Shown in pieces: positions 11,866 to 27,383 of a stretch of 64,000 nt of DNA; within the stretch, counting starts at the first letter, position 1, and the number at the start of each line of letters is the position of its first letter. Source of the stretch: Acutalibacteraceae bacterium (GTDB lineage: Bacteria; Bacillota; Clostridia; Oscillospirales; Acutalibacteraceae); the NCBI GenBank assembly GCA_045656145.1, contig JAZOQP010000037.1, positions 13,257 to 77,256 on the forward strand, given 5' to 3'. Position numbers and translations under genes: made by a program. A model generated the notes under the pieces. The model saw only the letters and a list, made by a program, of their open reading frames with translations. It was not told the origin of the DNA and did no database searches.

Positions 11866-14800
11866 TTATTTTGCGATTAAGATACCGCCAATTGCGATTT
11901 CGCCACCGCTTACAACTTCAACCTTAACTGTATGAGTACCATTCTTAAGGTTTTCAACGAGCGGTAATTCGCGACAGTCGCCACCCTTGAAGGTCTTTTC
12001 AACAGTTTCTTTGCCATCGATTGTGGCCTTGAAGGTAACTGTGCCGGGCGCATTCTCAAGGTTAGATAAGAATAAGCCTAAGGAGTTACCGGTGAAGGTG
12101 TAGGTAAATGAGCTGCCAGCAGAGCCGAAGAATTCTTCTTCAACGAATGTAGTGAAGGTGTTGTCCCTTACTTCGAAGCCATTTACGTTAGCAATTCTAT
12201 CAACTGTTACGATTTCGGTAAGAGTTGCCTGATTGCTTACGAGGTCGGTTGTGGGAACTTCATGCTTAACTAAACCTGCAGGAGCCTCAGCTGTGAGGAG
12301 AACATCAAGAGATTGAGCAACCTCAATAGCATAAATCTCATATGCATCAGCATTCGGATGAACGATATCCTCTGAATAATCGCTCCACTGCTTGCCTGTT
12401 TCAGCCATATCCTTAGCTAGAGCAGCACCTACATCGATAGTAGGAATGCCATAGTGCTCAGCAACAGCCTTGTGAGCAGCCTTGTTATCCCAATCAGCGC
12501 CACCAATATGGCCTTCATCAGTGATGAATACTATCACGATATCCATATAAGGATTAACTTCGCGAAGTTTCTTAATGATACCTTCCATATAGAGAGCAGA
12601 CTGAGTTTTGCTTAGACCTGCATAAACATCATTGATAGAGAACTCAACGAATACAAGGTCTAAATCGTTCTTAAGGAGCTGTTCGTTCATTCTGAAGAAG
12701 CCCCATGAAGAACCCGTGCCGCCCCAAGCAGCGTTGGTTTCGGTGATAAGAGAACCTGTAGCTGCAGCCTTTTCGGTAAGGTATGCAGTTGTGAGAGCTC
12801 TCCAAGATTGTGTAGATGCATCATCGGCACCTGTACCTGCGGTTACGGAACCGCCTAGGTAACCAACATTGATATTTTCGCCATTCTTGAGCTTATAGTT
12901 TGTATTGGCAAGATTATCAATTTCCTCTACACCGCCCCAGGTGCTGAGTGTACGCGCTGAAGCGTACACAGAGCCTGCGGTTGCTTTTGTTACAAGTGAA
13001 CCTGTCTTATCGAAGAGTTTTATGAACTGCTTGCCTTCGTAAGACTTGTTGTTTACAGTAAACTTCTCGTTGTTAGCTACAACATAGATGTTGTTTCTGA
13101 ACTCAGGCTCGCCGCCCTCGTTAGAAGCAGATACACCGAGTGCAGAGTTTACAGCGCTATCGAAAATGTTATTTTCAATTACGAATGTGCTATCGCCGTT
13201 TTCATCAAGAATGGTGTGGTTACCATAGGTGTTGCCGCCCTTGATGTGAGATGCAACGCCCTTATCAGGACGATATGCAAGACCCCACATTTCGTTATCG
13301 GCTGTACCACCTGCTCTTCTACAGATGTTATCTGAGAAGCTGATGTTCTGCATCTTAGCATAATCATAAGTTTCGATAGTTGCGCTATCCTCCATGTCAA
13401 CGCTCATAAAGTACTCGAAGTTATAAACGTTATCGGTAAGGAGGTTGTTGCTAATATTGATATCCTTATAAAGGATGTAATCGGTAGTGATATCTTCATA
13501 ACCACCGTTATTGCGACGAACATTGAACTGGAATGTTACAGCAGCATCGTATACCTGATAGATATAGCAGTTTTCAACTACCATATTTTCACAACCGCCC
13601 CAGATTTCGATACCGTTACCAAGACGAGTGTATGAACCGTGTGCGGAGCTGTTATATACACCTTCATCGCCCTGACGAGCGCCGCCGATCCAACCGATTT
13701 CAAGACCGTCAGCCTTGAAGTTCTGGTGTCCTGTGAAAGGATTGGTTGTGTTAGAAGCATCGACATGAGCTTCTGATACGGAAATACCGAAGTTACCATA
13801 TCTAATTTCAAGGTTCTGGAATGAGATGTTGCTCATAGAGTCATCGCAATCGAATGAGTTGCCTGTGTTGGGCTGTGCATAAAGCACTGCGCCGGAATTC
13901 TGAATTTCAACATGAGCGAAATCAGTTAAGTTCTTGCCCTCAGGTAAGAGAACATAAACCATTTTGTTATTGTAATCGAAGAAGAAGTCGTAAGCCTCAA
14001 CCATATCGTCGAGTGAAGCATCATAACGATAGTTTTCTTCTGCCTTGAACCACTTCTTATCAGCAGCGATTACATTCTGCTCAGCCTCATCTTCTACGAA
14101 GAAGATGGAACCGAAGTCTAACTTAGTAGCGCCCCAAAGTTCGCTATTTGTAAGGTTGATGCTCCAGAGTTCAGTTCCTTCAGGAGCTGTGAACTTATCT
14201 AAGCGGAGACCTGCCTGCTTAGTATCGTTAGCATCAATCTGGAAGTAATCAATCTTCTGAGCACTAATTCTTGAATCGGTAAGAGCATCCCAAGAACCGT
14301 AAACCTTCGGCTTAGCGCCTGTGCCGTAAGCACCGATTGAAATGTCTTTACCCATCAATACGCTCTCACGGAAGGTGTCGCCACGCTTAAGAAGAATTGC
14401 AACAGTCTTGCTCGGGTTGTTATCCTTATAGGTCTTAGCCTTGCTCATAGCGTAATTTAAGGTCTTATAAGGACTAGACTTAGTACCTGCATAGTATGAG
14501 TCAGCACCGCTGTTTGATACATAGTAAACCTTATTGGCAGTAAGTGTATCAGGATTGTTCTTAATCTTCTCATACATCTCAGCCTCAGCTAAATCGATAG
14601 CCTGAGTATCGTTAGAAGGCTTGAAGGTGTTTGCATTTGAAGTGTTATAAACAATTGTACCGTCCTTAGTTTCAAATACGGTAGTTGCGGTGAAGAATTC
14701 ATTGCCCCATGTAGCCCAATCGAAGTTGGTTACATTAACTGTAATGAAGTACTTAGAGATATCGGCGAATGAGGTTGGGTCGTAAACAACTGTGCCCTGT

Positions 14801-17800
14801 TCACCGGTAATCTTCTTGTAAACTGTATCGGTTGTAAAGCCTGCAACCTTGCCATCGCTTCTTTCAAGTGTGAAGCCTACGCGGTTGTACTTAGTTGTAT
14901 CAACGGTAGATACAAGGCGGAGGTCGAAGGAGTTATCCTTACGCTGCTTTCCATTTACAACTCTTTCAAATGTATCAGCCGGGTCAGTAATCTGCCACTT
15001 AACTGAGAATACTTCATTTGAAACGAACTTAGCATAAGCCTTGCCCGATTTAACAGAAGGATCAAGAGTTTCGGTGCAGTTAGCATCGGTGTACCAACCT
15101 GCGAATACCTTGCCATAAGGTGCATCCGGTGCGGTGTAGGGTTCGCCACGATACTTAGAAATATCTTCGAATTCCTGAACCTTAACGCTGTTGTTATCGG
15201 CCTTGAACTGATCATAGTAAGCAAGTTCTGCATCGGTAAATGTAATCTGAACTTCAACGAAATCGTAAGAAATCATTGCAAGTGCGCCACCACCGAAGCC
15301 GATTGTACCGCCTTCAGAAATTAACGAATCATCTACTCTGTTAATATCATAAGCTACATCCTTAGAAGCGCCGTCTGCAGTAGAGATATTAGCGCCGGAA
15401 GGTGAATGAGTGATGGTTATTGCATCAGAGTAATCAGCCTTAGAAGCATAGGTAATAGAACCGTTTTCAGCACCCGATACAGTATAGGTTGCATACCAAC
15501 CCTGGAACTGTGTGGGAGCGAAGTTCTCGCCTGCAGGAGTTGTGATGTTACGTATCTCGCGGATATATCCGTTAGAGTTATTGTTCTTGTTAACACGTAC
15601 CCATGTTGCAGGTGCACCGGAGTTACCAACACGAACCATCTGGTTAAAGTTGTTACCAATGGTGCCATCTTCATTAATCTTTAATCTTGTGTAGTTGTAA
15701 TAGAAGTTAGCATTGTTGGCCTGCGGGATTAGGTAGGTATTTAAGGTGATATCCGAGAACTTGGATAACTTAATACCTGAAGCAGAATCAGGTCTTACAT
15801 ACATTGCCCAACCTGTGCTGTTACCATTAGTAGCGGTCATACCACGCATAACGTAACCATCAGCAGAAATAGACTTGTTGAAACCAAGCTTAATTTCGCT
15901 ATCGGCATAGCCTGAAGATAACGACTTACCATACCATTCACTAGCATCGGTAAATACATAGTTGCCATCAGCTGCAATCTCAAGGTCGTTGAGAGAGAAC
16001 TTATGATAGTAAATAGTGTATTCGCCCTTAGAATCGGCAATAGTAATGTAAATGTTTACGCTGTTACCGAGGGAATCGGTAGCGGTTAAGGTTGCATAAC
16101 CTGAAGAGTAAGCAATAACTGCTCTATCAACAGTATCAAGAACAACATAAGCGTTTTCATCAGATAATGACCAAGTAGCAGTTGCGCCATCGATTAACAC
16201 GCCGTTATCAGCGGTTAATGTAAGGAGCTTAAGGTCAAGAGTCTGACCAACATTCATCGGGATAGCAGGTTTAGTGCTATCGATGATGTTAACCTTTACA
16301 GAATTATTCTTAATGTTCTGCTTTAAGGTTTCATCAATAGTGATGATTGCCTTGAAGTTAGAAACGTTGATATTTCTTGCATCAGAATCAGTATAGAAAC
16401 CTGCTGTACCGCCCTTCTGAAGAGCCTTAGGAATCGGATAGCCTGAAAGATCTTTATAAGATGTGCGAACATCGGTTGGGTCAGCATGGCTTACTGTCTT
16501 AAAGCTAACAGCTGCGTTTGCACCATTAACTGTTGTGCGATAGGTGTATGTCTGACCTTCATTGTTAATGATGAAATCATTACCATTCTGGTCTTTAAGC
16601 ATAATGTGTCTATCGCTATCCTGACGAACACCTGAATAGAAGAGTCTCATCCAGGAAGCATTGTTCGGAGCAGCACTATTTGATGCATACGGGAATACAC
16701 CGAAGAATAGACCTGAATCGGTTGAATCGTAAGCATCATTATCGCCGAGGTCAACTCTTAAGATTGAACCAAAGAGTCTTCCAACAACACCGTTTACAAC
16801 GCCTGTAAATTCGGTTGTAATATCGGCAAATCTTGAAATCATCTTGCCTGAAGCAGAGTCTTCTCTTAGATAGAATGCAGCAGCAGATGCAGCATTACCA
16901 TAAATACCATGTGCATTAATTGTGAGGGAACTTGAGAAGGTTGTTGCCCATTCGCTTTCCTCAGTGAATGCGCCGCCTGATAAATCAAGGCCTGAGAAGG
17001 TATGGTCATAGATTACATATTCGCCGTTTTCATCAGCTGTTACAAGATAATAATCAGCTGAAAGATCACCATTAGAAACAGTAAGTGTTGCAACACCTTC
17101 GCCAAGCATTGTAACGGTCTTAGTAACGTTATCAACAGAAGCGAGAGAGTTGTTAACCGAGAAGGTTAAATCGCTGCCCTTGCCTAAGATACCATTTTCG
17201 TTAAGCTCGAAATAGATATTTGTAAGGTCAAGCTTGTAGTTAACCTCCATAGGCATTGCGGGAGCTGAATACTTCATTGTGTATACGCCCTGAAGCTTAG
17301 TTGAGTTCTTCTCAACAAGAGCCTTCTGAGCCTCGGTAGGAGTAATGTAAGCGCGGATAGCTCTTACACCACCACGGCACTGGTTATCAATGTGGAAACC
17401 AATTGTACCGGCATCGGTTTCGGTGAGAGCTGCATTTTGCGCATCGGTAAGAGTGAATACTGCAGTGTTGAGTTCACCTGCAGGTTCTTTACCCTGAAGT
17501 GTAGCAGTAACGGTGTTACCGATTACAGAAAGGGTTTGTGTGCTAACTGCTGGTTTGTTGTTATTATTACTTGGATTATAGAACTTAAAGTTCTGCGGAA
17601 CAGTAGGAACTGTCATACCATCATCAGGTCTTACATACTCTAAGTTTTTAGTAGAAATATCAAGGGTAAAAGCAGTGTTATCGCCGCCACCCTGGATTCT
17701 CCAGAGAGAAGCTACACGGTTTACAGGAATAGTTCTAATCTCCTCATAAGCGCCGGTATCATAGTCGTAATTATAACCATATTTACCAGACCAAGGAGTA

Positions 17801-20800
17801 TCGTAACCATCGTACTGCCATTCATTATCGCCATACCAATCAAATATTTCTGGATCTCCATTGGATTCGAATGCAAGCTCGCCATCGCCATCTAAATCCA
17901 TATAATCAATAGGATTAATCTGTAAACGAGCAATAGGACCAACAGAGCCACGGCCTGATGAACCATAAGTAGTAGTTGATACAGCATCAGCCTCAACGAT
18001 AATATCACGGAAGGAGGTTACCAACTTACCGCTTTCGCTATTAGGATCGAGGAAGATAGTACCTGCACCCCAGTCGCCAAGCCAGAAGCCTTCTGCATTA
18101 GCTAAATCTTCAGTATACATGGCAACTATAGCTTTGTGGGATTCACTCCAACGAACGTTACTGTAAGAAGGACGAGATTCATCATAAACAGCATCGGACA
18201 TCCATTCACTATCCTTAGTGAAGAAGTATTCGCCGTAGCCGTTATACTCAAAGTCTTCAGATGAGAATTCTTTGTTGTAAATCTCAATCTTAGTATCTTT
18301 TTCTAATGCATAAACATAGAAGGTTGCGGTGTAATCGCCTGCAGTAGCAGTGATCGGATATAAATAGTCAGCTGTGAAGAGAGTGATGGTCTTATCGTTA
18401 TCACTAACAACAACGCCACCCTTTTCGCCTTCATAAGACCAAGTGATGTTCTTACCCTGAACAGCCTTGCCACCATCGAACTCGAAATAGAGCTCTTTGA
18501 GGTTAAGCACGGTGTTAACGCTCATCGGTAAAGCAGGATTGTTTGCAGGGATAACGCTGATATTTTCAGCAGTTGCCTTTAATTTAGCGAATAAATCGGT
18601 ATCGATATCAATTGTTACCTTGAAGTACTTAATATAAGCACGACCGATATTGTAAGAATACCAACCAACTGTACCTGCACCGGTTACAGCGCGAGCAGCA
18701 GCTACCTTAGAAGGATCAGAAGTGGTATCTTCGCTTAACTGGTAAACCTTGGTGTAATTTGCATCATCTCTATTCTTCTGCCAAACAGTTAAGTCATTGC
18801 CCTTGAAGGTCATCTTAGTGTTAACAGAGAATGTGCTCGGATTGTAACCAAAGCTTGAAGCACCGGCATAAGCATTGCCGCCGGAATAAATTATGGATGA
18901 ATTTGAGCTTGAGTAGAATAAGCCTTGAATACCTAAATAGGTATCGTTCTTATTGCTTAGAACACTACCCTTAACATTATATCTACCATAAATGTTGTAG
19001 TAAGTATCGTATCTGTCGCCCCATGAAAGCTGCAAGCTTGTTGCCTGAGTTTCAATGGTGTAATCAGCGAAGTTTGATACTAGCTTGCCATAAGCAGAAT
19101 CGGGGTTAAGTAATGCATAAGTATTGGTGTTGCCTGCAGAAAGGGAGATACCCTTCGAAGAATCATATGCAATTGAAGCATTACCTGATTCATTATATGC
19201 AATCCATGTGTCATTCTCACCGAAGTAGGTGGGAGTACCGGCCGCAATACCACTCTTTGTATCGGAAGATGAGAAGATATAGTTCATAAGAACATGCTGA
19301 TTATTTTCATCAGGTGTAATTACATATAATGTCTTCTCTTCGCCGCCGAATGAAGCGGTGATATCATATCTGCCTGCGGCAAATAATGTAATAGTATCGG
19401 TATCGTTATCAACTACAACTGAGTTATTGTTAGATGACCACTCAATAGAAGCACCTGAGAATACCTTGCCTGAATTGAATTCAAAGAAGATATCAGAAAC
19501 GCTAATCTTGGTTCCTGCTTCCATCGGGATAACAGGGTTGCCAGACTTAACAATTGTTAAATCAGAATTGATTTCGGGCTTCGAGAAGGTAGCAATTTCT
19601 TCATCAGTAAACTGAATTGTTACCTTAATATCTTTGAATACTAAACGAGTGTTATAGTCAGAAAGAGAGAGAGTACCAGCCTTGGTATCGCCAATCTTAG
19701 AAACCTGAGTATCATTTAATGTGATAGGAGCCTTAGCGCCATTCTTATAGATTTCAATGTTATCGCCAATAAGGCTTACTCTATAAGAATAGAATGTGTT
19801 TACAGCTGTATTCTTAGTGTCGTAGGTATAGAGGTTTTCAGTGCCTGAAACATTAAGTCTTGCCCAGTCAACACTCTGGCCACCCATACCGTTAAATCCA
19901 CCACCTGCATAGGTAGTAGCACCGGTAAGAGTTTCATTGTTTTCCCAGTTCATACGACCTACAAGTGAGAAGTCGTAAGATTTATCAGCAGCACCGAAGC
20001 TTGTTGAGAAAGCAATGTTAGCATCGATAATAACATCACGGAAAGATGATACTAATTTACCTGCATCACTAGAGGGCTTTAATACATAGCCGCAATAGAG
20101 GGCACCACCTGTTTGAACACCGCCGATAGAGTTCCAAGCTAAGTCGCCGGCACCGGAAACAAGTGTCCAATCACTATCAGCTACAAAGTTCTTAGTTGAA
20201 GTATCAACATCAGCCTCGGAGAAAGCGTGATAGTAGATTTCTCTTTGGTTATTAGAATCGGGTTCTAAAACATAGAATATCTTTTCTTCGCCATTAAATT
20301 CAGCGGTTACGGTGTAGATATCGCTGCCTAGAAGAGCAATAGCCTTATCAGCATCGGCTACCATTACACCGCCTGTTGTGTCTGTAGTAGACCAGGTAAT
20401 GTTCTTACCAAGAGCTACAGCGCCTGAATCGAAAGCAAAGAAGATATCAGAAACGTTAACCTTTTTACCAATAGTCATCGGAATAGCGGGCTTGGAAGCC
20501 GGAACGATAACTAGATCGGTTGTGATTGCGGGGTTAGAGAATTTAGCAATTTCTTCTTCTGTAAAGGAAATGCTTACCTTAATATACTGCATGTAAGCAC
20601 GACCGATATTGTAAGAATACCAACCAACTGTACCTGCACCGGTTACGCCGCGAGCAGCTGCTAACTTGGAAGCATCAGACTTGGTGTCTTCATTCATTTC
20701 ATATACCTTTGTATATTCAGAAGCACCCTTATTCTTCTGCCATGCAGTTAAATTGCTGCCCTCAACCTTAACCTTGGTATCAATAGCGTTGATAGCAGGA

Positions 20801-23800
20801 TCATATCCAAATCCTGAGCCTGCAGATAGTTTGCCGTTATTGCTATACTCAGCATAACCATAAGCAGTGGAGCAGAAGCAGCCTGCGAAACCTAAATAGG
20901 TATCATTAGCGGTGTTAATCTTCTCTCCTGCCATGTTATATCTGAGATAGTAAGTAAAGGTAGAATCTGAACGCTCATTCCAGTTAGGAGTCCAGTTAGA
21001 AGCGGAAGATTCAATTGTATAATCAGCAAAGCTTGATACTAGCTGACCATACGGAGATTCGGGGTTTAATAATGCATAAGAGTTAGTGTTTGCTGCAGAA
21101 AGGGATAAGCCCTTAGAAGCATCGAATGCGAATGAAGAAGCACTTGCAGAATAAGCTATCCATGTGTCGTCCTTACCAAAATAGGTAGGTGTGTCAGCAG
21201 GAATGCCTGTTAGAACATCATCTGCTGAGAAGGTATAGTTCATAAGAACATACTCATTGCTGCTATCGGGTTCTAATACATAGAATGTAGCTACATCATC
21301 GCCTAAAGTCGCGGTTAAAGGAAGAATGCTATTTGAAAGTAAAGCAATGGTCTTTTCGGTATCTTCAACGATAAGACCGCCTGTTTCATCGGTTGTAGAC
21401 CAAGTAATATTCTTACCAAGAGCTACCTTGCCTGAGGGGAACTGGAAGTAAATATCAGAGATATTAATCTTCTTACCAACAGTCATAGGAATAGCGGGTT
21501 TAGTGTTAGATACAACGAAGAGTTCGCTTGAAGCATCCTTAATAGCTTTAACAAGGTCTTCAGCAAATGCGATAGAAACCTTAGCATAGCCTAAAGGAGC
21601 GCGGTAGTTTTGACCTGAGAAAATACCAATTGTACCGCCCTTAGTATTGTTAAGAGCTTCCTGCTGGTCAGCAGTTAAATCCTGAGTTGTTTCAACAAAG
21701 CCTGCGCCTGTGTTGATGAAGGTTCTCATCGAGTTACCGATTAATTCAACCTTAACGGTTGAGAAAGCCTTCTGAGGAATGGTTAAGCCGAGGTCGGTAG
21801 AAGGACCGCCTACACCGTTTACCGAGTAAGAAATGTCGGTGTACTGGTTATACTGGTTAGAGCCTTCATTATTGGTTCTTGTGTAAGTAACTATTACATA
21901 AGACTCTCTGCCATCGGCAACGGTGTTATTAACAAAGTTTACTCTTGCAAGAGGACCTGCTATTTCGTTACCGCTCCAGTTAAAGTTACTGGGAAGAGCA
22001 TAGTTTACTTCAACGATTACGTTGCTAAACTGTGATACTAATTTACCACTTTCAGAATCGGGTCTTAAATAGAAGTAATCGGAAATGTTACCATAGTTAC
22101 CAATACCTGTTACACCATTATAAGATGTGCCGAGAGCGGATGCATCGGTATGGGTCCATTCGCTTTCTTCGGTGAACTGACCATCAACAAGGTCATTTTC
22201 AGAGAAGGTGTGGCTATAGATAACCTTTGTGTTATCGGCATCGGGCTCTAGAACATAGAAGTCCTTCTTCTCGCCCTTATATTCAGCTGTAATGGTGTAG
22301 ATGCCTGAAGCTGTTAATAAAACAGTTGTGCCCTCCACTGCAACTGCGCCGGAAGTATCAGCTGTTGACCAAGTAATATCCTTACCTGAAGCCACAAGGC
22401 CTGAATCAAAACCGAAGTAGATGTTTGATAAATCAGCCGTGGTCTTAGCAGCCATAGGAATAGCAGGGCTATCGGCTGAAACTAAAACTATATCAGAAAT
22501 GAGGTGATCATAAGCTGAAAGTTCATCAGCTGTGAACACTAATGTTACCTTAATATCTTTAAATACAAGACGGGTGTTATAGTCGGAAAGTGAAATGGTA
22601 CCGGTCTTGGTATCGCCTATCTTAGCCAACTGGTCATCACTTAAGGTGATGGGAGCTTCAACGCCATTCTTAGCAATCTTAATATCGTTGCCAATAAGGC
22701 TTACTCTGTAGCTATAGAAGGTATTGGTTGTTGTGTTCTTAGTATCATAAGTATAGAGGTTTTCAGTGCCTGAAACATTAAGTCTTGCCCAGTCAACAGT
22801 TTGACCGCCCGCACCGTTGAAGCCACCGCCTGCATAGGTGCTACCGTTAACACGACCAACGAGTGAGAAGTCAAAGGTCTTATCAGCTGCACCGAAGTTA
22901 GTTGAGAAGGCAATGTTTGCATCAATAATAACATCGCGGAAGGATGATACTAATTTACCAGCTTCGCTTTCGGGCTTTAATTGATAGCCGCAGTATAAAG
23001 CATTACCTGTCTGAACACCGCCGATAGAGTTCCAAGCTAAATTGCCTGCACCGCTAGTAAGTGTCCAAGCGCTATCGGCAACGAAATCGCCTGTAGCTGT
23101 ATCAACTTCTGACTCAGAGAATGCATGATAGTAAAGTTCTTTTGTTCCATCAGAATTGGGTTCAATAATATAAATTGTCTTAGGAGCATCAGCCTTTGCA
23201 TAAGCTGCGGTAATTTTATAGATACCGGGGGCGAACATTGTAACAGTTTTTGCTGTGTTATCAACTGCAACGCCTGTTTCCTCAGTAGACCAGGTGATGT
23301 CTGCACCGCGAGCTACTGCTCCGTTATCAAATTCAAAATAGATAGAGGATAAGTCAAGTTTCTTACCTGCTGTTAGAGGAATAGCAGGCTTGGAGGCTTC
23401 AACTATTAAAAGGTCGGATAAATATGCATCCATTACAGCGGCCTCTGCAGTAAGGTCGATAGTAACGGTAATAGATTTATTGTATTGACGAGACTGCTCG
23501 GCATTATCAATAGCAATAGTACCCTTAAGGTTAGCAATATCTTCGCCTTCACGAGCAACGCCATCATAAAGAACGGTGTATTCGCTCTGAGTTGCTAGCT
23601 TGATAGCATAAGTAATATTGTTACCATTAAAGGTTACTCTTACATTATTATCGGCTGTTGCGGTAGCAAAGGTCTTATCAGAAATCACTGTTCCCTCTCC
23701 GCCTGATACAACTGTAGAAAATGAAGTATAAGTAAAGTTGTTACCACCGGGGAGCTGAACACCTGCAAACTTTTCATCCTTAAGAACGAAGTTGTTTGAG

Positions 23801-24669
23801 GTTCCGTTATAGGTAGCGTTGATAAGAGAATACTTACCTAAAAGATAGAAATATCTTGAATTGGATGTTGCAGCATATCTGCCTGAATAGGTAAAGTCGA
23901 TAGTATAGTCTGCAAAAGCAGAAACTAATTTACCGCCCTTGGTTTCAGGCTTAAGATACATATAAGCTGCAGCATTGGTTGCAATACCAAGACCCTTGCC
24001 ATCTGTATATGTCCAGCTATTCTGTTGGGTAATCCAGTCAGGATTGGTATAGGTGAACTCTACGCCATCAGCTGTTGTATATGTTTTACCATAATACTTA
24101 GCATGAGCAGTATTGAACAATGCCCAATCGCTTGCAGGGTTACCTGCTACGTGAGTACTCTTATGAGCCGATAATGAACTGCTTGTTTCATCATTCGGGT
24201 TAGTAGACGGAGTATAGTTTACGCCATCAATAACCAAAGGCTCAATAGTTTTTAAATCATCAGCAGAGAAAGTGTAGTCATAAATAACTGCGCTACCGTT
24301 TGCTGCCGGTTCAATTATGTAAATAGTTTTTGTTTCGCCGTTTGCTGTGGCTTCGATAGCATAGATATCGGAACCTGCTACATCAACGGTCTTAGCGGTA
24401 TCATCAACACGTACACCGCCTGAAGTATCGGTTGTTGACCATGTGATATTAGCGCCGTTATAGGTGTCTCCACCAAACTGCACGTCAATCTTAGTAAGGT
24501 CGATAACCGTGCCCTGCTTTGCAGGAATTACGGGCTTATTGTTAACCACTGTGTAAACTGCAGCGTCAGCAAAAGCCGTGAAAGCTACTGAAAGCATTGA
24601 AACAAGCATTGCCACTGCAAGCAATACTGATAATGCTTTTTTGGTAACTCTCTTAATCGAGTTGTTCAT
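11866..24669 (-). CDS. Giant (4,267 aa) secreted modular protein: signal peptide, 9 x [Big_2-like Ig + LamG/DUF1080-like lectin fold], Flg_new-like repeat, beta-sandwich, right-handed beta-helix, SGNH/GDSL esterase, C-terminal beta-sandwich
   Basis: A single uninterrupted ORF with AGGAGG 8 nt before the ATG. The signal peptide is KKALSVLLAVAMLVSMLSVAFTAFA-DA. Nine modules open with a K-P-A-I-P-M..G....S.IYF.F......G..ITWST motif. See the sub-features below for the catalytic domains. Confidence 0.9.
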   Translation of the reverse strand: MNNSIKRVTKKALSVLLAVAMLVSMLSVAFTAFADAAVYTVVNNKPVIPAKQGTVIDLTKIDVQFGGDTYNGANITWSTTDTSGGVRVDDTAKTVDVAGSDIYAIEATANGETKTIYIIEPAANGSAVIYDYTFSADDLKTIEPLVIDGVNYTPSTNPNDETSSSLSAHKSTHVAGNPASDWALFNTAHAKYYGKTYTTADGVEFTYTNPDWITQQNSWTYTDGKGLGIATNAAAYMYLKPETKGGKLVSAFADYTIDFTYSGRYAATSNSRYFYLLGKYSLINATYNGTSNNFVLKDEKFAGVQLPGGNNFTYTSFSTVVSGGEGTVISDKTFATATADNNVRVTFNGNNITYAIKLATQSEYTVLYDGVAREGEDIANLKGTIAIDNAEQSRQYNKSITVTIDLTAEAAVMDAYLSDLLIVEASKPAIPLTAGKKLDLSSIYFEFDNGAVARGADITWSTEETGVAVDNTAKTVTMFAPGIYKITAAYAKADAPKTIYIIEPNSDGTKELYYHAFSESEVDTATGDFVADSAWTLTSGAGNLAWNSIGGVQTGNALYCGYQLKPESEAGKLVSSFRDVIIDANIAFSTNFGAADKTFDFSLVGRVNGSTYAGGGFNGAGGQTVDWARLNVSGTENLYTYDTKNTTTNTFYSYRVSLIGNDIKIAKNGVEAPITLSDDQLAKIGDTKTGTISLSDYNTRLVFKDIKVTLVFTADELSAYDHLISDIVLVSADSPAIPMAAKTTADLSNIYFGFDSGLVASGKDITWSTADTSGAVAVEGTTVLLTASGIYTITAEYKGEKKDFYVLEPDADNTKVIYSHTFSENDLVDGQFTEESEWTHTDASALGTSYNGVTGIGNYGNISDYFYLRPDSESGKLVSQFSNVIVEVNYALPSNFNWSGNEIAGPLARVNFVNNTVADGRESYVIVTYTRTNNEGSNQYNQYTDISYSVNGVGGPSTDLGLTIPQKAFSTVKVELIGNSMRTFINTGAGFVETTQDLTADQQEALNNTKGGTIGIFSGQNYRAPLGYAKVSIAFAEDLVKAIKDASSELFVVSNTKPAIPMTVGKKINISDIYFQFPSGKVALGKNITWSTTDETGGLIVEDTEKTIALLSNSILPLTATLGDDVATFYVLEPDSSNEYVLMNYTFSADDVLTGIPADTPTYFGKDDTWIAYSASASSFAFDASKGLSLSAANTNSYALLNPESPYGQLVSSFADYTIESSASNWTPNWNERSDSTFTYYLRYNMAGEKINTANDTYLGFAGCFCSTAYGYAEYSNNGKLSAGSGFGYDPAINAIDTKVKVEGSNLTAWQKNKGASEYTKVYEMNEDTKSDASKLAAARGVTGAGTVGWYSYNIGRAYMQYIKVSISFTEEEIAKFSNPAITTDLVIVPASKPAIPMTIGKKVNVSDIFFAFDSGAVALGKNITWSTTDTTGGVMVADADKAIALLGSDIYTVTAEFNGEEKIFYVLEPDSNNQREIYYHAFSEADVDTSTKNFVADSDWTLVSGAGDLAWNSIGGVQTGGALYCGYVLKPSSDAGKLVSSFRDVIIDANIAFSTSFGAADKSYDFSLVGRMNWENNETLTGATTYAGGGFNGMGGQSVDWARLNVSGTENLYTYDTKNTAVNTFYSYRVSLIGDNIEIYKNGAKAPITLNDTQVSKIGDTKAGTLSLSDYNTRLVFKDIKVTIQFTDEEIATFSKPEINSDLTIVKSGNPVIPMEAGTKISVSDIFFEFNSGKVFSGASIEWSSNNNSVVVDNDTDTITLFAAGRYDITASFGGEEKTLYVITPDENNQHVLMNYIFSSSDTKSGIAAGTPTYFGENDTWIAYNESGNASIAYDSSKGISLSAGNTNTYALLNPDSAYGKLVSNFADYTIETQATSLQLSWGDRYDTYYNIYGRYNVKGSVLSNKNDTYLGIQGLFYSSSNSSIIYSGGNAYAGASSFGYNPSTFSVNTKMTFKGNDLTVWQKNRDDANYTKVYQLSEDTTSDPSKVAAARAVTGAGTVGWYSYNIGRAYIKYFKVTIDIDTDLFAKLKATAENISVIPANNPALPMSVNTVLNLKELYFEFDGGKAVQGKNITWSYEGEKGGVVVSDNDKTITLFTADYLYPITATAGDYTATFYVYALEKDTKIEIYNKEFSSEDFEYNGYGEYFFTKDSEWMSDAVYDESRPSYSNVRWSESHKAIVAMYTEDLANAEGFWLGDWGAGTIFLDPNSESGKLVTSFRDIIVEADAVSTTTYGSSGRGSVGPIARLQINPIDYMDLDGDGELAFESNGDPEIFDWYGDNEWQYDGYDTPWSGKYGYNYDYDTGAYEEIRTIPVNRVASLWRIQGGGDNTAFTLDISTKNLEYVRPDDGMTVPTVPQNFKFYNPSNNNNKPAVSTQTLSVIGNTVTATLQGKEPAGELNTAVFTLTDAQNAALTETDAGTIGFHIDNQCRGGVRAIRAYITPTEAQKALVEKNSTKLQGVYTMKYSAPAMPMEVNYKLDLTNIYFELNENGILGKGSDLTFSVNNSLASVDNVTKTVTMLGEGVATLTVSNGDLSADYYLVTADENGEYVIYDHTFSGLDLSGGAFTEESEWATTFSSSLTINAHGIYGNAASAAAFYLREDSASGKMISRFADITTEFTGVVNGVVGRLFGSILRVDLGDNDAYDSTDSGLFFGVFPYASNSAAPNNASWMRLFYSGVRQDSDRHIMLKDQNGNDFIINNEGQTYTYRTTVNGANAAVSFKTVSHADPTDVRTSYKDLSGYPIPKALQKGGTAGFYTDSDARNINVSNFKAIITIDETLKQNIKNNSVKVNIIDSTKPAIPMNVGQTLDLKLLTLTADNGVLIDGATATWSLSDENAYVVLDTVDRAVIAYSSGYATLTATDSLGNSVNIYITIADSKGEYTIYYHKFSLNDLEIAADGNYVFTDASEWYGKSLSSGYADSEIKLGFNKSISADGYVMRGMTATNGNSTGWAMYVRPDSASGIKLSKFSDITLNTYLIPQANNANFYYNYTRLKINEDGTIGNNFNQMVRVGNSGAPATWVRVNKNNNSNGYIREIRNITTPAGENFAPTQFQGWYATYTVSGAENGSITYASKADYSDAITITHSPSGANISTADGASKDVAYDINRVDDSLISEGGTIGFGGGALAMISYDFVEVQITFTDAELAYYDQFKADNNSVKVQEFEDISKYRGEPYTAPDAPYGKVFAGWYTDANCTETLDPSVKSGKAYAKFVSNEVFSVKWQITDPADTFERVVNGKQRKDNSFDLRLVSTVDTTKYNRVGFTLERSDGKVAGFTTDTVYKKITGEQGTVVYDPTSFADISKYFITVNVTNFDWATWGNEFFTATTVFETKDGTIVYNTSNANTFKPSNDTQAIDLAEAEMYEKIKNNPDTLTANKVYYVSNSGADSYYAGTKSSPYKTLNYAMSKAKTYKDNNPSKTVAILLKRGDTFRESVLMGKDISIGAYGTGAKPKVYGSWDALTDSRISAQKIDYFQIDANDTKQAGLRLDKFTAPEGTELWSINLTNSELWGATKLDFGSIFFVEDEAEQNVIAADKKWFKAEENYRYDASLDDMVEAYDFFFDYNNKMVYVLLPEGKNLTDFAHVEIQNSGAVLYAQPNTGNSFDCDDSMSNISFQNLEIRYGNFGISVSEAHVDASNTTNPFTGHQNFKADGLEIGWIGGARQGDEGVYNSSAHGSYTRLGNGIEIWGGCENMVVENCYIYQVYDAAVTFQFNVRRNNGGYEDITTDYILYKDINISNNLLTDNVYNFEYFMSVDMEDSATIETYDYAKMQNISFSDNICRRAGGTADNEMWGLAYRPDKGVASHIKGGNTYGNHTILDENGDSTFVIENNIFDSAVNSALGVSASNEGGEPEFRNNIYVVANNEKFTVNNKSYEGKQFIKLFDKTGSLVTKATAGSVYASARTLSTWGGVEEIDNLANTNYKLKNGENINVGYLGGSVTAGTGADDASTQSWRALTTAYLTEKAAATGSLITETNAAWGGTGSSWGFFRMNEQLLKNDLDLVFVEFSINDVYAGLSKTQSALYMEGIIKKLREVNPYMDIVIVFITDEGHIGGADWDNKAAHKAVAEHYGIPTIDVGAALAKDMAETGKQWSDYSEDIVHPNADAYEIYAIEVAQSLDVLLTAEAPAGLVKHEVPTTDLVSNQATLTEIVTVDRIANVNGFEVRDNTFTTFVEEEFFGSAGSSFTYTFTGNSLGLFLSNLENAPGTVTFKATIDGKETVEKTFKGGDCRELPLVENLKNGTHTVKVEVVSGGEIAIGGILIAK
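12300..12880 (-). other. SGNH/GDSL-type hydrolase (esterase) domain of the giant protein
   Basis: Block I is VGYLGGSVTAGTG (Ser nucleophile), block II AAWGGTGS, block III VFVEFSINDV and block V DIVHPN (Asp/His). The order and spacing are typical of SGNH carbohydrate esterases. Confidence 0.75.
12950..14530 (-). other. Right-handed parallel beta-helix (pectate-lyase-fold) domain of the giant protein
   Basis: It starts VYYVSNSGADSYYAGTKSSPYKTLNYAMSKAK...ILLKRGDTFRES...GAYGTGAKPKVYGS. Later coils read NLEIRYGNFGISV, GIEIWGGCENMVVENCYIYQVYDAAVTFQ, INISNNLLTDNVYNFEYF and IENNIFD. It is clearly paralogous to the two lipoproteins at 34796-37970. Confidence 0.75.
15035..15200 (-). other. Listeria-Bacteroides (Flg_new)-like repeat within the giant protein
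   Basis: YRGEPYTAPDAPYGKVFAGWYTDANCTETLDPSVKSGKAYAKFV matches the F.GWYTD....F......YAKW pattern of that repeat family. Confidence 0.55.
15235..24545 (-). repeat. Array of nine ~310-425-aa Ig+lectin-like modules inside the giant gene
   Basis: On the minus strand the modules begin near 24540, 23395, 22475, 21505, 20495, 19540, 18545, 17270 and 16275. Each ends with a G-T-[IV]-G.......[FIV].[VI]..[IF] strand pair like the C-terminus of DUF1080/LamG domains. Examples are GGTIGIFSGQNYRAPLGYAKVSIAF and AGTVGWYSYNIGRAYMQYIKVSISF. Confidence 0.75.
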
Positions 24670-24710
24670 AAATTTATCCTCCTAATTATGATTAATTACG
24701 ATTTTTGTTT

Positions 24711-24881
24711 TTAACCCCAAGGATTATTGGGATTGCCTGTGCCATCACCGAAGCCATCGCCTGAATCAACTTCGGTATCAATGCCGCCGCCATCAGGTTC
24801 CACTTTCAATGATGTTACGATAACATCTTCAGAAAGGAATTTTACTATTTCCAATTCCGGTGTTACGTACAAACTTTTCAT
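24711..24881 (-). CDS. 56-aa acidic, Gly/Asp-rich small protein co-transcribed with the giant gene
   Basis: ATG 24879-24881 follows GGAGGTAGAGG. The product is MKSLYVTPELEIVKFLSEDVIVTSLKVEPDGGGIDTEVDSGDGFGDGTGNPNNPWG. No terminator lies in the 41-nt gap before the giant gene's RBS. Confidence 0.65.
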   Translation of the reverse strand: MKSLYVTPELEIVKFLSEDVIVTSLKVEPDGGGIDTEVDSGDGFGDGTGNPNNPWG

Positions 24882-24918
24882 TTCCTCTACCTCCAAAACT
24901 AAATAATGTTACAGTGTT

Positions 24919-24947
24919 ATCATATCATACCCTATTTTACCTTGCAA
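24919..24947 (-). promoter_or_regulatory. Putative promoter of the small-peptide/giant-gene transcription unit
   Basis: Minus strand TTGCAA (24942-24947), 17 nt, TATGAT (24919-24924), about 35 nt upstream of the peptide ATG. Confidence 0.4.
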
Positions 24948-25086
24948 GCAATAGATTTTCTCTTTAATGTTTCCCCTTTTTTTAGTGCCTAAAAGCAGTA
25001 CTATTTTAAGGTTTCAAAAAATATAGTTTTAGACCTTTTAACAAAAACTGTAAACCCTTTTGATATTAATTATTGAAATAATGCAA

Positions 25087-25117
25087 AAGGCAGAGTGGCT
25101 TTACTCCACCCTGCCTT
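25087..25117 (-). terminator. Probable terminator of the poly-Asn gene
   Basis: AAGGCAGAGTGG-ctttact-CCACCCTGCCTT (11/12 bp), 20 nt after the stop codon. The minus-strand T tract is short (TTTT). Confidence 0.5.
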
Positions 25118-25136
25118 TATATTATATATGTATTAA

Positions 25137-26057
25137 TTATCCGTTTAATCCGCCCATACTGTTTCCGATGGAATCATTAACAGGCTCTTCTTCCTCTTGA
25201 CCGCCGCCCTGGTTTCCACCTTGGTTATCGCCGGTATTATCATTGTTATCGTCGTTGCTGTTGTCGTTGTTGTTATTGTCGTTGTTATCGTTGTTATCGT
25301 TGTTATCGTTACTATTATCGTTGTTATTGTTGTTATCGCTGTTATTGTTGTCGTTATTATTATTGTTGTTATCGTTGTTATTATTATCGTTGTTATTATT
25401 GTTATTATTGTCGTTATTGTTGTTATTATCGTTGCTATTATCGTTGTTATTGTCGTTATCGCTGTTATTATCGTTGCTATTATCGTTGTTATTGTTGTTA
25501 TCGCTGTTATTGTTGTCGTTATTGTTGTTATTATTGTTGTTATTATCGTTGTTATTATTGTTGTTATTATTGTTGTTGTTATTATTGTTGTTGTTATTAT
25601 TGTTGTTATTATTATTATTGTTATTGTTATTGTTATTATTATTATTGTTGTTATTATTGTTATTATTATTGTTATTGTTATTATTGTTATTATTGTTATT
25701 ATTGTTATTATTGTTGTTATTGTTGTCGTCATTATCAGAGAAAAGGTCATCGAAATCATTGCCCTGATTATTGCCGCCCAGATTATTACTTCCTTCTTCG
25801 CCGCCATCAATTATGCCATTGGAATTAGGCTTATTGCTTTCGGAATTACCGTTACCACTACCGCTGCCATCAGGAGTAGTGCTTTCTCCGCCGTTATTAT
25901 CGGGGAGCTCGGTACCGTTATCGGTGCCCTGCTCTATCTGAGAGTTACTACCCGCGGTTTCTCCCGCACCATTAGGGTTACATGTTGCAAGAATTATTGC
26001 AACGGCTAAAGCTACAACAACTATAGGAATTAAGATAAATAATGTCTTTTTATTCAT
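25137..26057 (-). CDS. Membrane-anchored (possibly lipoprotein) intrinsically disordered Asn/Asp/Gly/Ser-rich protein with ~59-residue homo-Asn tract
   Basis: AAGGTGGTG RBS. The N-terminus is MNKKTLFILIPIVVVALAVAIILATC. The rest is low complexity: NGAGETAGSNS..., then uninterrupted AAT/AAC codons at 25548-25724, then (D/S)N(n) repeats, ending GGNQGGGQEEEEPVNDSIGNSMGGLNG. Confidence 0.7.
   Translation of the reverse strand: MNKKTLFILIPIVVVALAVAIILATCNPNGAGETAGSNSQIEQGTDNGTELPDNNGGESTTPDGSGSGNGNSESNKPNSNGIIDGGEEGSNNLGGNNQGNDFDDLFSDNDDNNNNNNNNNNNNNNNNNNNNNNNNNNNNNNNNNNNNNNNNNNNNNNNNNNNNNNNNNNNDNNNNNNNNNDNNNSDNNNNNDNSNDNNSDNDNNNDNSNDNNNNNDNNNNNNNDNNNNDNNNNNNDNNNSDNNNNNDNSNDNNDNNDNNDNNNNDNSNDDNNDNTGDNQGGNQGGGQEEEEPVNDSIGNSMGGLNG
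25240..25735. repeat. Cryptic trinucleotide (AAY)n / (GAY-AAY) low-complexity tract
   Basis: The plus strand is almost exclusively (A/G)TT triplets with occasional ATC/GTC/GCT. It produces open frames in several phases on both strands. Confidence 0.9.
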
Positions 26058-26077
26058 ACGAACACCACCTTAAATTT

Positions 26078-26106
26078 AGTATACAATATATTCCTTAATA
26101 AATCAA
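26078..26106 (-). promoter_or_regulatory. Putative promoter of the poly-Asn gene
   Basis: Minus strand TTGATT (26101-26106), 17 nt, TATACT (26078-26083). Confidence 0.45.
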
Positions 26107-26128
26107 GAAGATAATTTTAACAAAACCC

Positions 26129-26157
26129 TTGACAAATGGCTCCAAATACCTTATTAT
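26129..26157 (+). promoter_or_regulatory. Putative promoter of tRNA-Leu
   Basis: TTGACA (26129-26134), 17 nt, TATTAT (26152-26157), 22 nt upstream of the tRNA 5' end. Confidence 0.5.
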
Positions 26158-26179
26158 ATTTAAGTGCTAAATTTAATAT

Positions 26180-26266
26180 GCCGCTGTGGTGGAATAGGCA
26201 GACACAAGGGACTTAAAATCCCTCGGGGGCGACTCCGTACCGGTTCAAGTCCGGTCAGCGGCACCA
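26180..26266 (+). tRNA. tRNA-Leu (anticodon UAA), class II with long variable arm, CCA encoded
   Basis: Acceptor stem GCCGCTG/CAGCGGC. Anticodon stem-loop AGGGA-CTTAAAA-TCCCT (anticodon TAA). Long variable arm, T-arm CCGGTTCAAGTCCGG, and 3' ACCA. Confidence 0.9.
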
Positions 26267-26299
26267 AAAATCCCGTTCACGAAAGTGAATGGGATTTTT
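26267..26299 (+). terminator. Rho-independent terminator after tRNA-Leu
   Basis: AAAATCCCGTTCAC-gaaa-GTGAATGGGATTTT followed by T. Confidence 0.75.
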
Positions 26300-26443
26300 A
26301 CTTTTTACTTCTTATCTCTTCACTATTACATCAAAATTAAACTTTGCACCTTTTTATTCAAGCTGATATACCAAAACAATTTAACAGCATATACTAATAC
26401 TGGGCATATAGAAACCATAAAATATGAAAGTTATTGATACGCT

Positions 26444-26608
26444 ATGAATTCGTTAGAACTAACAACCGCAATAACTGCGCTTGCCAATACCATTGCTTGC
26501 AACCTCTCGATTGATGAAATGGCTCTTTTAGCAAGCATTCTCGTTCAGTTGGGCGACACCCTCGCCACAATTGCGGCAAGAGAAAATTTATGCATAGATA
26601 AAAAATAA
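26444..26608 (+). CDS. 54-aa small Cys-containing protein (not in the ORF track; resembles a small-protein family common in Clostridia, recalled as DUF6774-like)
   Basis: The ATG-to-TAA ORF gives MNSLELTTAITALANTIACNLSIDEMALLASILVQLGDTLATIAARENLCIDKK. It ends immediately before a strong terminator. The RBS is weak or absent. Confidence 0.5.
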   Translation: MNSLELTTAITALANTIACNLSIDEMALLASILVQLGDTLATIAARENLCIDKK

Positions 26609-26646
26609 CCGAGGTCTGATTTAAAATATCAGACCTCGGTTTATTT
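26609..26646. terminator. Bidirectional terminator
   Basis: CCGAGGTCTGAT-ttaaaat-ATCAGACCTCGG followed by TTTATTTA. It lies between convergent genes. Confidence 0.8.
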
Positions 26647-26654
26647 ATCGCTTA

Positions 26655-27383
26655 CTAATCTCTTCCTCCGAAGTTTAAATTAAAACCATCCGAGTTATTT
26701 GATGATGGCTGAGGTAAATAAGGAATAAGGCGCTCAGCTGTATTAATAATCGGCATAGACTGAATATACACTTTACCGGGGCCTGTAATTCGGGTGTTGA
26801 AAACACCTTCTCCGCCAAACAAAATATTTTTAAAGCCCCTAACGGTTTCAATATCCATGCTGCAACTTTCGCTCATTGCCGCAAGGTAACCTGTATCAAC
26901 AATTATGCTCTCCCCTACGCCTAAGGTGTATTCCTTGCAATAGCCATCGATTTCAATGAAGGCGGTGCCTTCGCCCGAAATCTTTTGCATAATGAATCCT
27001 TCTCCGCCAAACAAACCTCTGCCTAGAGATTTTTGGAAAAACACGGATAAATCTAAACCCTTCTCCATTGCTAAGAAGCCTGATTTTTGAACAATAATGC
27101 CGTTACCCAATGTTACTTCAAAAGGAATTATAGAGCCGGGGAAAGATGAAGCAAAAGCAATCATTCCGCTGCTACCCTGCGGGGTATATTCATTCATAAA
27201 TATGGAATCTCCCGAAAGAAGCCTACCAAGTGCCTTTTTAATTCCACCGCCGCTATTGGTTTGCATCTGCATATTGGGGCTCATCCAACTCATTGCGCCA
27301 CTTTGAGTGCAAAGGGATTGACCCACTTCGGGATAACAAATAACAACCGGTAAATTGCCACCTTCAATTTCATATTTAATCAT
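26655..27383 (-). CDS. TIGR00266 / AIM24 (DUF124) family protein
   Basis: MIKYEIEGGNLPVV...LCTQSGAMSWMSPNMQM...GGEGFIMQKISGEG.AFIE...GGEGVFNTRITGPGKVYIQSMP is a typical AIM24-family pattern. Confidence 0.8.
   Translation of the reverse strand: MIKYEIEGGNLPVVICYPEVGQSLCTQSGAMSWMSPNMQMQTNSGGGIKKALGRLLSGDSIFMNEYTPQGSSGMIAFASSFPGSIIPFEVTLGNGIIVQKSGFLAMEKGLDLSVFFQKSLGRGLFGGEGFIMQKISGEGTAFIEIDGYCKEYTLGVGESIIVDTGYLAAMSESCSMDIETVRGFKNILFGGEGVFNTRITGPGKVYIQSMPIINTAERLIPYLPQPSSNNSDGFNLNFGGRD

Follow-up and report, generated by a model that had tools for sequence, protein, structure and literature searches.

The window analysed here is a 64,000-nucleotide stretch of DNA from an Acutalibacteraceae bacterium (assembly GCA_045656145.1, contig JAZOQP010000037.1, positions 13,257 to 77,256). 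It carries an open reading frame (ORF) on the minus strand at 25137-26057, which by our reading of the sequence encodes 306 amino acids plus a stop codon and which we call the poly-Asn gene. Asparagine makes up 156 of the 306 residues (51%), and 59 of these stand in one uninterrupted run. We read the gene as a lineage-specific orphan that encodes a disordered, anionic surface tether or spacer, and we give this combined claim a probability of about 0.5. It is quite probable that the gene and its architecture are real. An initial annotation, made from the sequence alone, had described a membrane-anchored protein of more than 50% Asn, and both descriptions held.

Coding sequence and expression signals

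Besides Asn, the protein contains 35 Asp, 28 Gly and 19 Ser residues. Its calculated isoelectric point is ~4 and its mass is 32.7 kDa. As far as they can be read from the DNA, the expression signals are complete and stand in the right order on the right strand. The scan found a promoter-like site, TTGATT-17-TATACT, at 26078-26106 (minus strand), which is a consensus match only, at 9 of 12 positions. A ribosome-binding site, GGTGGTG, was read in the sequence at 26063-26069 (minus strand), 5 nt ahead of the ATG. An intrinsic terminator at 25086-25118 (minus strand) begins 19 nt past the stop codon and has a 13-bp stem with 7 GC pairs and a T-rich tail (TGCATTATTT). The annotated promoter and terminator of the gene were both recovered in this way.

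Three further frames are open across the repeat, at 25197-26009 (plus strand), 25243-25767 (plus strand) and 25145-25810 (minus strand). Their products would be poly-Val/Ile, poly-Leu/Ser and poly-Thr/Ile chains of 174-270 amino acids. Among the open frames, the Asn frame is the only one that starts with a positively charged n-region and a 20-residue hydrophobic helix. Gene callers could choose the wrong frame or strand at this locus.

Protein architecture and membrane anchor

The protein begins with MNKKT (residues 1-5), which carries positive charge. It is followed by a hydrophobic signal anchor at residues 6-25 (LFILIPIVVVALAVAIILAT; 25983-26042, minus strand) with a mean Kyte-Doolittle hydropathy of 3.3 over 19 residues. 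In an AlphaFold2 model made from the single sequence, a helix at residues 6-26 is the only secondary structure, and the predicted local distance difference test score (pLDDT) is below 50 for 262 of the 306 residues. The low complexity that had been claimed for the rest of the protein agrees with this predicted disorder. The protein is classed by prediction as a signal-anchored type II (N-in/C-out) single-pass membrane protein and as an intrinsically disordered, low-complexity protein.

Outside the anchor, the 280-residue ectodomain contains 46 Asp and Glu residues versus a single Lys or Arg, giving a net charge of ~-45. The protein as a whole has three Lys and no Arg, so that trypsin would yield few peptides. 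Only 12 of the 280 residues are hydrophobic, and one residue is Met. Residues 26-111 (25725-25982, minus strand) form a non-repetitive segment rich in G, S, N, E, T and D, as annotated, and this is the sole part usable for homology searching. Residues 112-275 have a sequence entropy of 0 to 1.2 bits. The G/Q/E-rich C-terminal tail, GDNQGGNQGGGQEEEEPVNDSIGNSMGGLNG, occupies residues 276-306 (25140-25232, minus strand) and has no match elsewhere in the window.

A possible lipobox had also been suggested at the end of the hydrophobic stretch. The lipobox pattern (G+LPP or PROSITE PS51257 type) is [LVI][ASTVI][GAS]C after a short signal peptide, with A, G or S at position -1. Cys26 comes after a non-canonical 'LAT', so that Thr stands at -1, and the sequence LATC matches neither form of the pattern. 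Six other proteins of the window do match it, with AAC, VGC, CAC or SSC, and they have shorter h-regions. The h-region of the poly-Asn protein is 20 residues long, which is the length of a transmembrane helix. Because LATC fails the pattern and the h-region is of this length, a signal anchor is the more likely reading of the sequence, and an atypical lipoprotein is the less probable one.

Pfam assigned the poly-Asn protein to no family and found no Curlin_rpt, SLH or dockerin domain. NCBIfam gave a single spurious low-complexity match of 25 bits, to a YSIRK lipase model with a cut-off of 650 bits. No LPXTG motif was found in the protein sequence. The protein is not of the curli (CsgA) type, as judged from the missing Curlin_rpt match and from its neighbours, which are a tRNA-Leu gene, an AIM24 gene and a gene pair for a peptide and a giant esterase. 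It is likewise not a wall-anchored stalk of the SD-repeat/LPXTG, SLH or dockerin kind. By composition it is Q/N-rich. The Michelitsch-Weissman type of criterion asks for at least 30 Gln plus Asn residues per 80-residue window, and the best such window (residues 112-191) contains ~76 Asn.

The asparagine tract and its DNA

Residues 112-170 are encoded by 59 uninterrupted Asn codons at 25548-25724 (minus strand), 33 AAT and 26 AAC, and the annotated position and length are exact. The longest pure runs inside this core are 4 AAT and 3 AAC codons, and no pure trinucleotide run exceeds 12 nt. The two codons had been described as irregularly mixed, and their order is indeed close to random (runs test, z = 0.78). 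Autocorrelation of the core gave a weak 9-codon periodicity (z = 3.5), and Tandem Repeats Finder (TRF) reported no more than imperfect periods (9-42 nt, 73-79% matches) in the repeat region. The core has no non-synonymous change in 59 codons, yet 26 of the 59 are AAC. Such a tract stands alone in the window. Asn makes up 6.1% of residues in the other large ORFs, and the longest Asn run in any other ORF of at least 150 amino acids is 4.

Residues 171-275 (25233-25547, minus strand) form a D/N/S repeat region of 74 AAY (Y = C or T), 23 GAY, 7 AGY and 1 ACC codons. Over the whole of residues 112-275, the 164 codons are 133 AAY, 23 GAY, 7 AGY and 1 ACC, and each non-Asn codon is one substitution away from AAY. 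All seven Ser codons of this part are AGY, whereas the N-terminal segment uses TCN too. The unit DNNNSDNNNNNDNSNDNN, reported earlier as duplicated, is present at residues 181 and 236, and the GGNQGGGQEEEE tail is also there. Part of DNNNSDNNNNNDNSNDNN is encoded by a 47-nt exact repeat, whose copies lie at 25312-25358 and 25477-25523, 165 nt (55 codons) from each other. It is the longest exact repeat inside the gene, and no k-mer of 48 nt or more is repeated.

Two-fold codons end in C in 52% of cases (84/163) in the repeat part, compared with 31% in the first 111 codons of the gene and 8-35% in the surrounding genes. By arithmetic on the counted codons, 52% against a background of ~25% is a difference of ~8 standard deviations.

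Since each non-Asn codon is one substitution off AAY, residues 112-275 resemble an AAY array that first expanded and then decayed in part, mainly by A-to-G changes. Interrupted repeats slip less readily than pure repeats, and the AAC enrichment is as expected for a stabilised, interrupted repeat. The scrambled codons would fit selection acting on Asn in the protein. Every repeat unit is a multiple of 3, which lets slippage alter the length of the tract but never its reading frame or on-off state. The view that the tract is highly length-unstable or a contingency-type locus is at odds with these results: pure runs reach at most 12 nt (4 codons), C-ending codons are abundant, and the units keep the frame. 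The tract also lies inside the ORF and off the promoter, and the gene does not qualify as a simple-sequence phase-variation locus.

Poly-asparagine runs in other genomes

We scanned one genome per species from 185,579 prokaryotic species for runs of AAY codons. There are at least 120 stretches of 30 or more consecutive AAY codons, and a complete scan for 59 or more gave 67 stretches. Most of the 67 are pure (AAT)n or (AAC)n, and these are either outside any plausible ORF or clustered in four suspect metagenome-assembled genomes (MAGs). Mixed-codon runs of at least 59 in plausible ORFs number about six, a count that is a lower bound since short-read contigs break in such tracts. These are in a Clostridia penicillin-binding protein (PBP) with 81 Asn (L115), a Bacilli secreted protein with 62 Asn (L126), Victivallales (L212), Bacteroidales (L242), Altarchaeum (L246) and one further locus (L251). 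With so few plausible ORFs, the feature is truly rare at such a length, as the initial annotation had stated.

Asn runs of this kind had further been called characteristic of eukaryotic prion-like domains, a view that is weakened by bacterial examples. Among the matches listed, Asn runs of 30-81 recur in exported proteins, chiefly of Firmicutes. They include class A PBPs with poly-Asn in the C-terminal tail (L115, L147), an NlpC/P60-SH3 hydrolase (L097), an SLH protein (L132), lipoproteins with canonical lipoboxes (L088, L102, L112) and planctomycete signal-peptide proteins (L096, L160). The coding runs mix AAT and AAC, whereas the non-coding arrays are pure. A survey of 6,469 bacterial proteomes catalogued 11,296 N-rich disordered proteins (PMC6400439), and low-complexity regions are known to build up in extracellular proteins (PMC8004648). 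The length of 59 Asn is rare; Asn-rich disordered segments of exported bacterial proteins are already known.

The two class A PBPs are from gut Clostridia and have Asn runs of 81 (L115, 746-3709, minus strand) and 34 (L147, 1053-3533, plus strand). Their poly-Asn tails are at the position of the disordered region that directs Bacillus subtilis PBP1 to wall gaps (PMC9732909). Two other loci (L110, L131) have the same architecture as the poly-Asn protein: after a short, charged N-terminus and a single transmembrane helix comes a chain rich in S, T and N that leads into poly-Asn. Both contigs end within the Asn tract. Because such tracts break short-read assemblies, as in these two cases, genes for an anchor plus poly-Asn are probably under-counted in short-read MAG catalogues.

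The four suspect MAGs are GTDB representatives labelled Metamycoplasmataceae, Ekhidna, Hyphomicrobiales and Leptonemataceae. They contain dozens of pure-(AAT)n contigs with up to 438 codons, and also poly-I, poly-H, poly-L and poly-Y tracts. Their loci include L084, L087 and L090 (contigs CBDHHR...), L100 and L141 (CBDHDT...) and those on the CBDCEV and CBDHEM contigs. This looks like eukaryotic contamination or a long-read artefact and not like bacterial sequence.

Proposed origin and role

We infer the topology, mode of origin and function of the poly-Asn protein as follows. The gene would be a monocistronic orphan transcribed from its own promoter-like site. The product would be inserted by an uncleaved N-terminal signal anchor, leaving 5 residues on the cytoplasmic side and a single helix within the membrane. 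The remaining 280 residues would be exposed outside a Gram-positive (Oscillospirales-like) cell as a disordered, strongly anionic, Asn-dominated chain without a folded domain.

The low-complexity part may have arisen by in-frame AAY expansion, through slippage or unequal exchange of multi-codon units. Single A-to-G changes, each turning Asn into Asp or Ser, would then have caused partial decay and so produced the D/N/S region beside the still-pure 59-Asn core, and the interspersed AAC codons would make the array an interrupted, relatively stable repeat. The role of the chain may be passive and physical. As a hydrated negative tether or brush, either at the cell surface or within the wall zone, it could serve as a spacer, a cation-binding layer or a shield. 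The protein would be a stand-alone version of the Asn-rich linkers and tails found on Firmicute PBPs, wall hydrolases and lipoproteins.

Comparison with known systems

The Vlp and Vsa proteins of Mycoplasma are true lipoproteins encoded by near-perfect DNA repeats, and their on-off switches work via site-specific inversion or tracts in the promoter. Their size varies as repeats are gained or lost in frame, with tail length as the presumed basis of a steric shield at the surface. Like them, the poly-Asn protein consists of an anchor and a chain that is almost wholly low-complexity repeats. It differs in that it fails the lipobox test, its repeats are scrambled, and no switching element was seen at the locus.

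Staphylococcal Clf and Sdr adhesins carry an SD-repeat stalk, a ligand-binding A domain and a C-terminal LPXTG sortase signal. The long acidic low-complexity stalk resembles the D/N/S alternation of residues 171-275. In contrast, the poly-Asn protein lacks an A domain and LPXTG and is anchored at its N-terminus.

The extracytoplasmic disordered regions of B. subtilis PBP1 and RsgI depend on disorder and composition, not on exact sequence (PMC9732909). These regions, and the poly-Asn tails of the PBPs, NlpC/P60 hydrolase and lipoproteins listed above (L115, L147, L097, L088, L102, L112), are membrane-anchored, outward-facing, polar or charged chains that are poor in hydrophobic residues, as is the chain described here. 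Mixed-codon Asn runs of 31-81 occupy the same positions in those six loci. There, however, the chain is an appendage of an enzyme or signalling protein, whereas here it is the whole protein beyond the anchor. With 5 cytoplasmic residues, the poly-Asn protein by itself can neither signal nor catalyse.

GerG (CD0311) of Clostridioides difficile is a species-restricted protein of ~30% Asn whose disordered repeats are predicted to be prion-like; it is under sigma-E control and has a role in spore germination (PMC5241399). Its repeats drive spontaneous gel formation in vitro and differ in number between strains, and they are dispensable for GerG function (PMC5241399). GerG and the poly-Asn protein are both species-restricted Clostridia proteins without homologues elsewhere, with extreme Asn content and disordered repeats. 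The GerG repeats are GMPNNMSNNMNSNM and are Met/Pro-rich, whereas those of the poly-Asn protein are homo-Asn and D/N. The poly-Asn protein also has a clear N-terminal anchor and is much more strongly acidic, and it lacks a functional domain outside the repeats. No sequence similarity to GerG was found, its N-terminal region has no homologue or family match, and its ectodomain contains a single Met, so that it does not belong to the GerG family.

Eukaryotic Asn-rich prion-like domains and homorepeats are found in yeast, Dictyostelium and Plasmodium (PMC6400439, PMC13093961). They have in common with the poly-Asn protein a predicted disorder, Asn runs tens of residues long and an origin in the expansion of repeats in A+T-rich DNA. 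They belong mostly to cytoplasmic or nuclear proteins within a proteome-wide bias; here there is one exported protein, and no other ORF of at least 150 amino acids in the window has such a run.

Weighing the reading and its alternatives

Several points weigh against a functional tether or spacer. The homology query was the non-repetitive N-terminal 111 residues, and the full-length protein was avoided because poly-Asn words retrieve compositional look-alikes only. This query found no homologue in a word-indexed database of 5.8 billion proteins, in an exhaustive phmmer search of 1.84 billion representatives, in JGI metagenome contigs or in GTDB genomes. In the absence of any homologue, conservation and purifying selection of the gene cannot be demonstrated. 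A related species (L201, GCA_052836905.1) has unrelated non-coding DNA in place of the gene. The protein offers no domain for a tether to present and has no known wall-binding motif. Its expression is something we infer from the signals around the ORF, and the codon scrambling could come from a mixed seed unit instead of selection. The function as tether, spacer or shield, drawn by analogy with other envelope proteins, is tentative. The gene also has no known copy elsewhere: the unique N- and C-terminal segments have no paralogue in the window or the fetched loci, and no conspecific sequence of the gene is present in the collections searched with the N-terminal query or by exact look-up. Exact-sequence look-ups of the poly-Asn protein, the AIM24 protein and the 61-residue peptide encoded nearby returned no record.

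We ranked four alternatives by likelihood: a neutral proto-gene, a gel or amyloid former, a size-variable locus and an assembly artefact, in descending order. The leading one, a young proto-gene or effectively neutral ORF, is unlikely but deserves serious attention. Here an AAY array would have grown behind a chance start or a short ORF for a signal anchor, without any selected function, and the frame would stay open since AAY, GAY and AGY seldom mutate to stop codons. This would account for an orphan in all databases searched, for its absence at the syntenic position in L201 and for a D/N/S region that resembles mutational decay; other frames across the repeat are open too, so that open frames are cheap in such DNA. 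It accounts less well for complete and well-placed expression signals and a well-formed anchor. Residues 26-111 and 276-306 are non-repetitive, yet their frame is open and their composition coherent. Compared with the genomic background, AAC is strongly enriched, and 26 codons of the core are AAC while all 59 encode Asn. A functional amyloid, prion-like protein or gel former, in which the 59-Asn core would self-assemble by polar-zipper stacking into surface fibres or a hydrogel, is much less probable than that. The Q/N-rich criterion is easily exceeded, the Asn-rich GerG repeats gel spontaneously in vitro (PMC5241399), and Asn favours amyloid formation (cited in PMC6400439). The net charge and the acidic flanks, however, disfavour simple stacking outside the 59-Asn core, the AlphaFold2 model contains no beta structure, and there is no curli-type repeat, family match, or chaperone or nucleator gene nearby. 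GerG itself does not need its gel-forming repeats (PMC5241399).

Slightly less likely again is a size-variable surface locus of the contingency type, with frequent in-frame gain and loss of units as in mycoplasma Vlp/Vsa. The coding region is tandemly repetitive by TRF and contains the 47-nt exact repeat, and the product is predicted to be anchored and surface-exposed. The contigs of L110 and L131, cut at their ends in Asn tracts, indicate that such tracts are troublesome and possibly heterogeneous. The near-random codon order and the lack of any pure repeat above 12 nt argue against frequent length change, units of 3 make on-off switching impossible, and the enriched interrupting AAC codons are a signature of stabilisation. 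A bolder form of the poly-Asn surface chain is a long shot: a selected stand-alone polymer whose length is fixed by codon scrambling and whose 59-Asn core would form an extracellular gel or amyloid-like layer, perhaps bridged by Ca2+ or Mg2+ via the D/N region and perhaps retaining the adjacent 4,267-residue secreted esterase. Hardly credible is an assembly artefact, that is, a mis-joined or mis-sized tract. Low-complexity DNA is a classic source of assembly errors, and related contigs break near or inside such tracts (L202; L110, L131). With no k-mer of 48 nt or more repeated within the gene, however, there is just one path through the gene for any assembly with k above 47. This and the position of the tract deep in the interior of a ~88 kb contig make a collapse artefact unlikely, and the frame is unbroken over 921 nt with coherent expression signals on its flanks.

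Neighbouring genes and synteny

Divergent from the poly-Asn gene lies tRNA-Leu(TAA) at 26180-26266 (plus strand), with a near-consensus promoter-like site, TTGACA-17-TATTAT, at 26129-26157 (plus strand). The promoter-like sites of the two genes stand back to back with a gap of ~20 nt (26078-26157). In an Rfam scan of 24500-26700, the tRNA-Leu was the sole match. We considered a tRNA-linked genomic island and rejected it; the poly-Asn gene is on the 5' side of the tRNA-Leu and not on the 3' side, and the neighbourhood showed no integrase.

The best GTDB matches of the AIM24 neighbour are 83% identical and come from Acutalibacteraceae/Faecousia MAGs, and by this protein the organism belongs with uncultured animal-gut Oscillospirales. 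In 80 AIM24-related loci we found no Asn-rich ORF and no homologue of the poly-Asn, peptide or giant protein. An AIM24 that is 90% identical to the window copy is abundant in metagenomes (L203-L208), with one variant on 207 contigs. Its context is different, between a TetR-type gene and a gene for a very large LRR_5/Flg_new surface protein.

On the other side of the poly-Asn gene is a gene for a 61-residue peptide at 24711-24896 (minus strand), with the probable start MKSLYVTPELEIVKF... It is followed by a giant gene at 11866-24669 (minus strand), whose secreted product of 4,267 residues has repeated modules, a C-terminal GDSL esterase and a CE2 domain. A GTDB synteny search via the N-terminus of the giant protein gave no match. 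In two other NCBI MAGs (L201, L202), the peptide and its promoter region are ~93% conserved (93% for the cluster representative P0001), and the giant gene has 73-79% nucleotide identity. The peptide is far better conserved than the adjoining giant gene. Two-fold codons of the giant gene end in C in 46% of cases versus 17-35% in the flanking genes, and its region has a G+C content of ~0.40-0.45 versus 0.36-0.40 in the flanks. This bias suggests high expression or foreign origin.

A link between the poly-Asn gene and the peptide/giant-protein unit had been raised. It comes down to adjacency. Homology to L201 spans the start of the giant gene, the peptide gene and the peptide promoter region, and it breaks off at window position 25098, within the 3' arm of the poly-Asn terminator. 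As L201 keeps the peptide and the start of the giant gene without the poly-Asn gene, the latter is not a conserved partner of the unit. The 3' arm and T-run left in L201 suggest that some gene with such a terminator predated the split. Positions 1-282 of L201 are unrelated to the window and end in a different hairpin terminator, and the contig ends there. This 282-nt segment is rich in CGATATAT-like motifs. Its match to Gut-1 RNA is weak and falls below the threshold (23.9 bits, gathering score 50, E = 0.11). The L202 sequence stops 188 nt short of the peptide gene and says nothing about the poly-Asn gene.

We also rejected the idea that the poly-Asn gene is a giant Asn-sensing leader peptide that attenuates a downstream operon. 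Its 306 codons are far too many, its terminator is a plain intrinsic one, and the peptide gene has its own conserved promoter region. No alternative pairing was noticed at the terminator by eye, without folding of the region.

Significance

The DNA gives no support to, or contradicts, the ideas of a contingency locus, an amyloid and a link to the giant protein. If the gel or amyloid-like layer did form, a bacterium would here be using a prion-like homo-Asn domain outside the cell. Without expression of the gene, the locus is a curiosity of repeat expansion only. If it is expressed, the protein would be among the purest natural test cases for a homo-Asn chain outside a bacterial cell. It consists of an anchor and a disordered region and nothing else, so that any phenotype would map to the low-complexity chain. 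The locus would also illustrate clearly how an in-frame codon array arises, becomes stabilised through synonymous interruptions and decays to D/N/S repeats. The poly-Asn protein carries to an extreme a habit already known from cell-envelope proteins.

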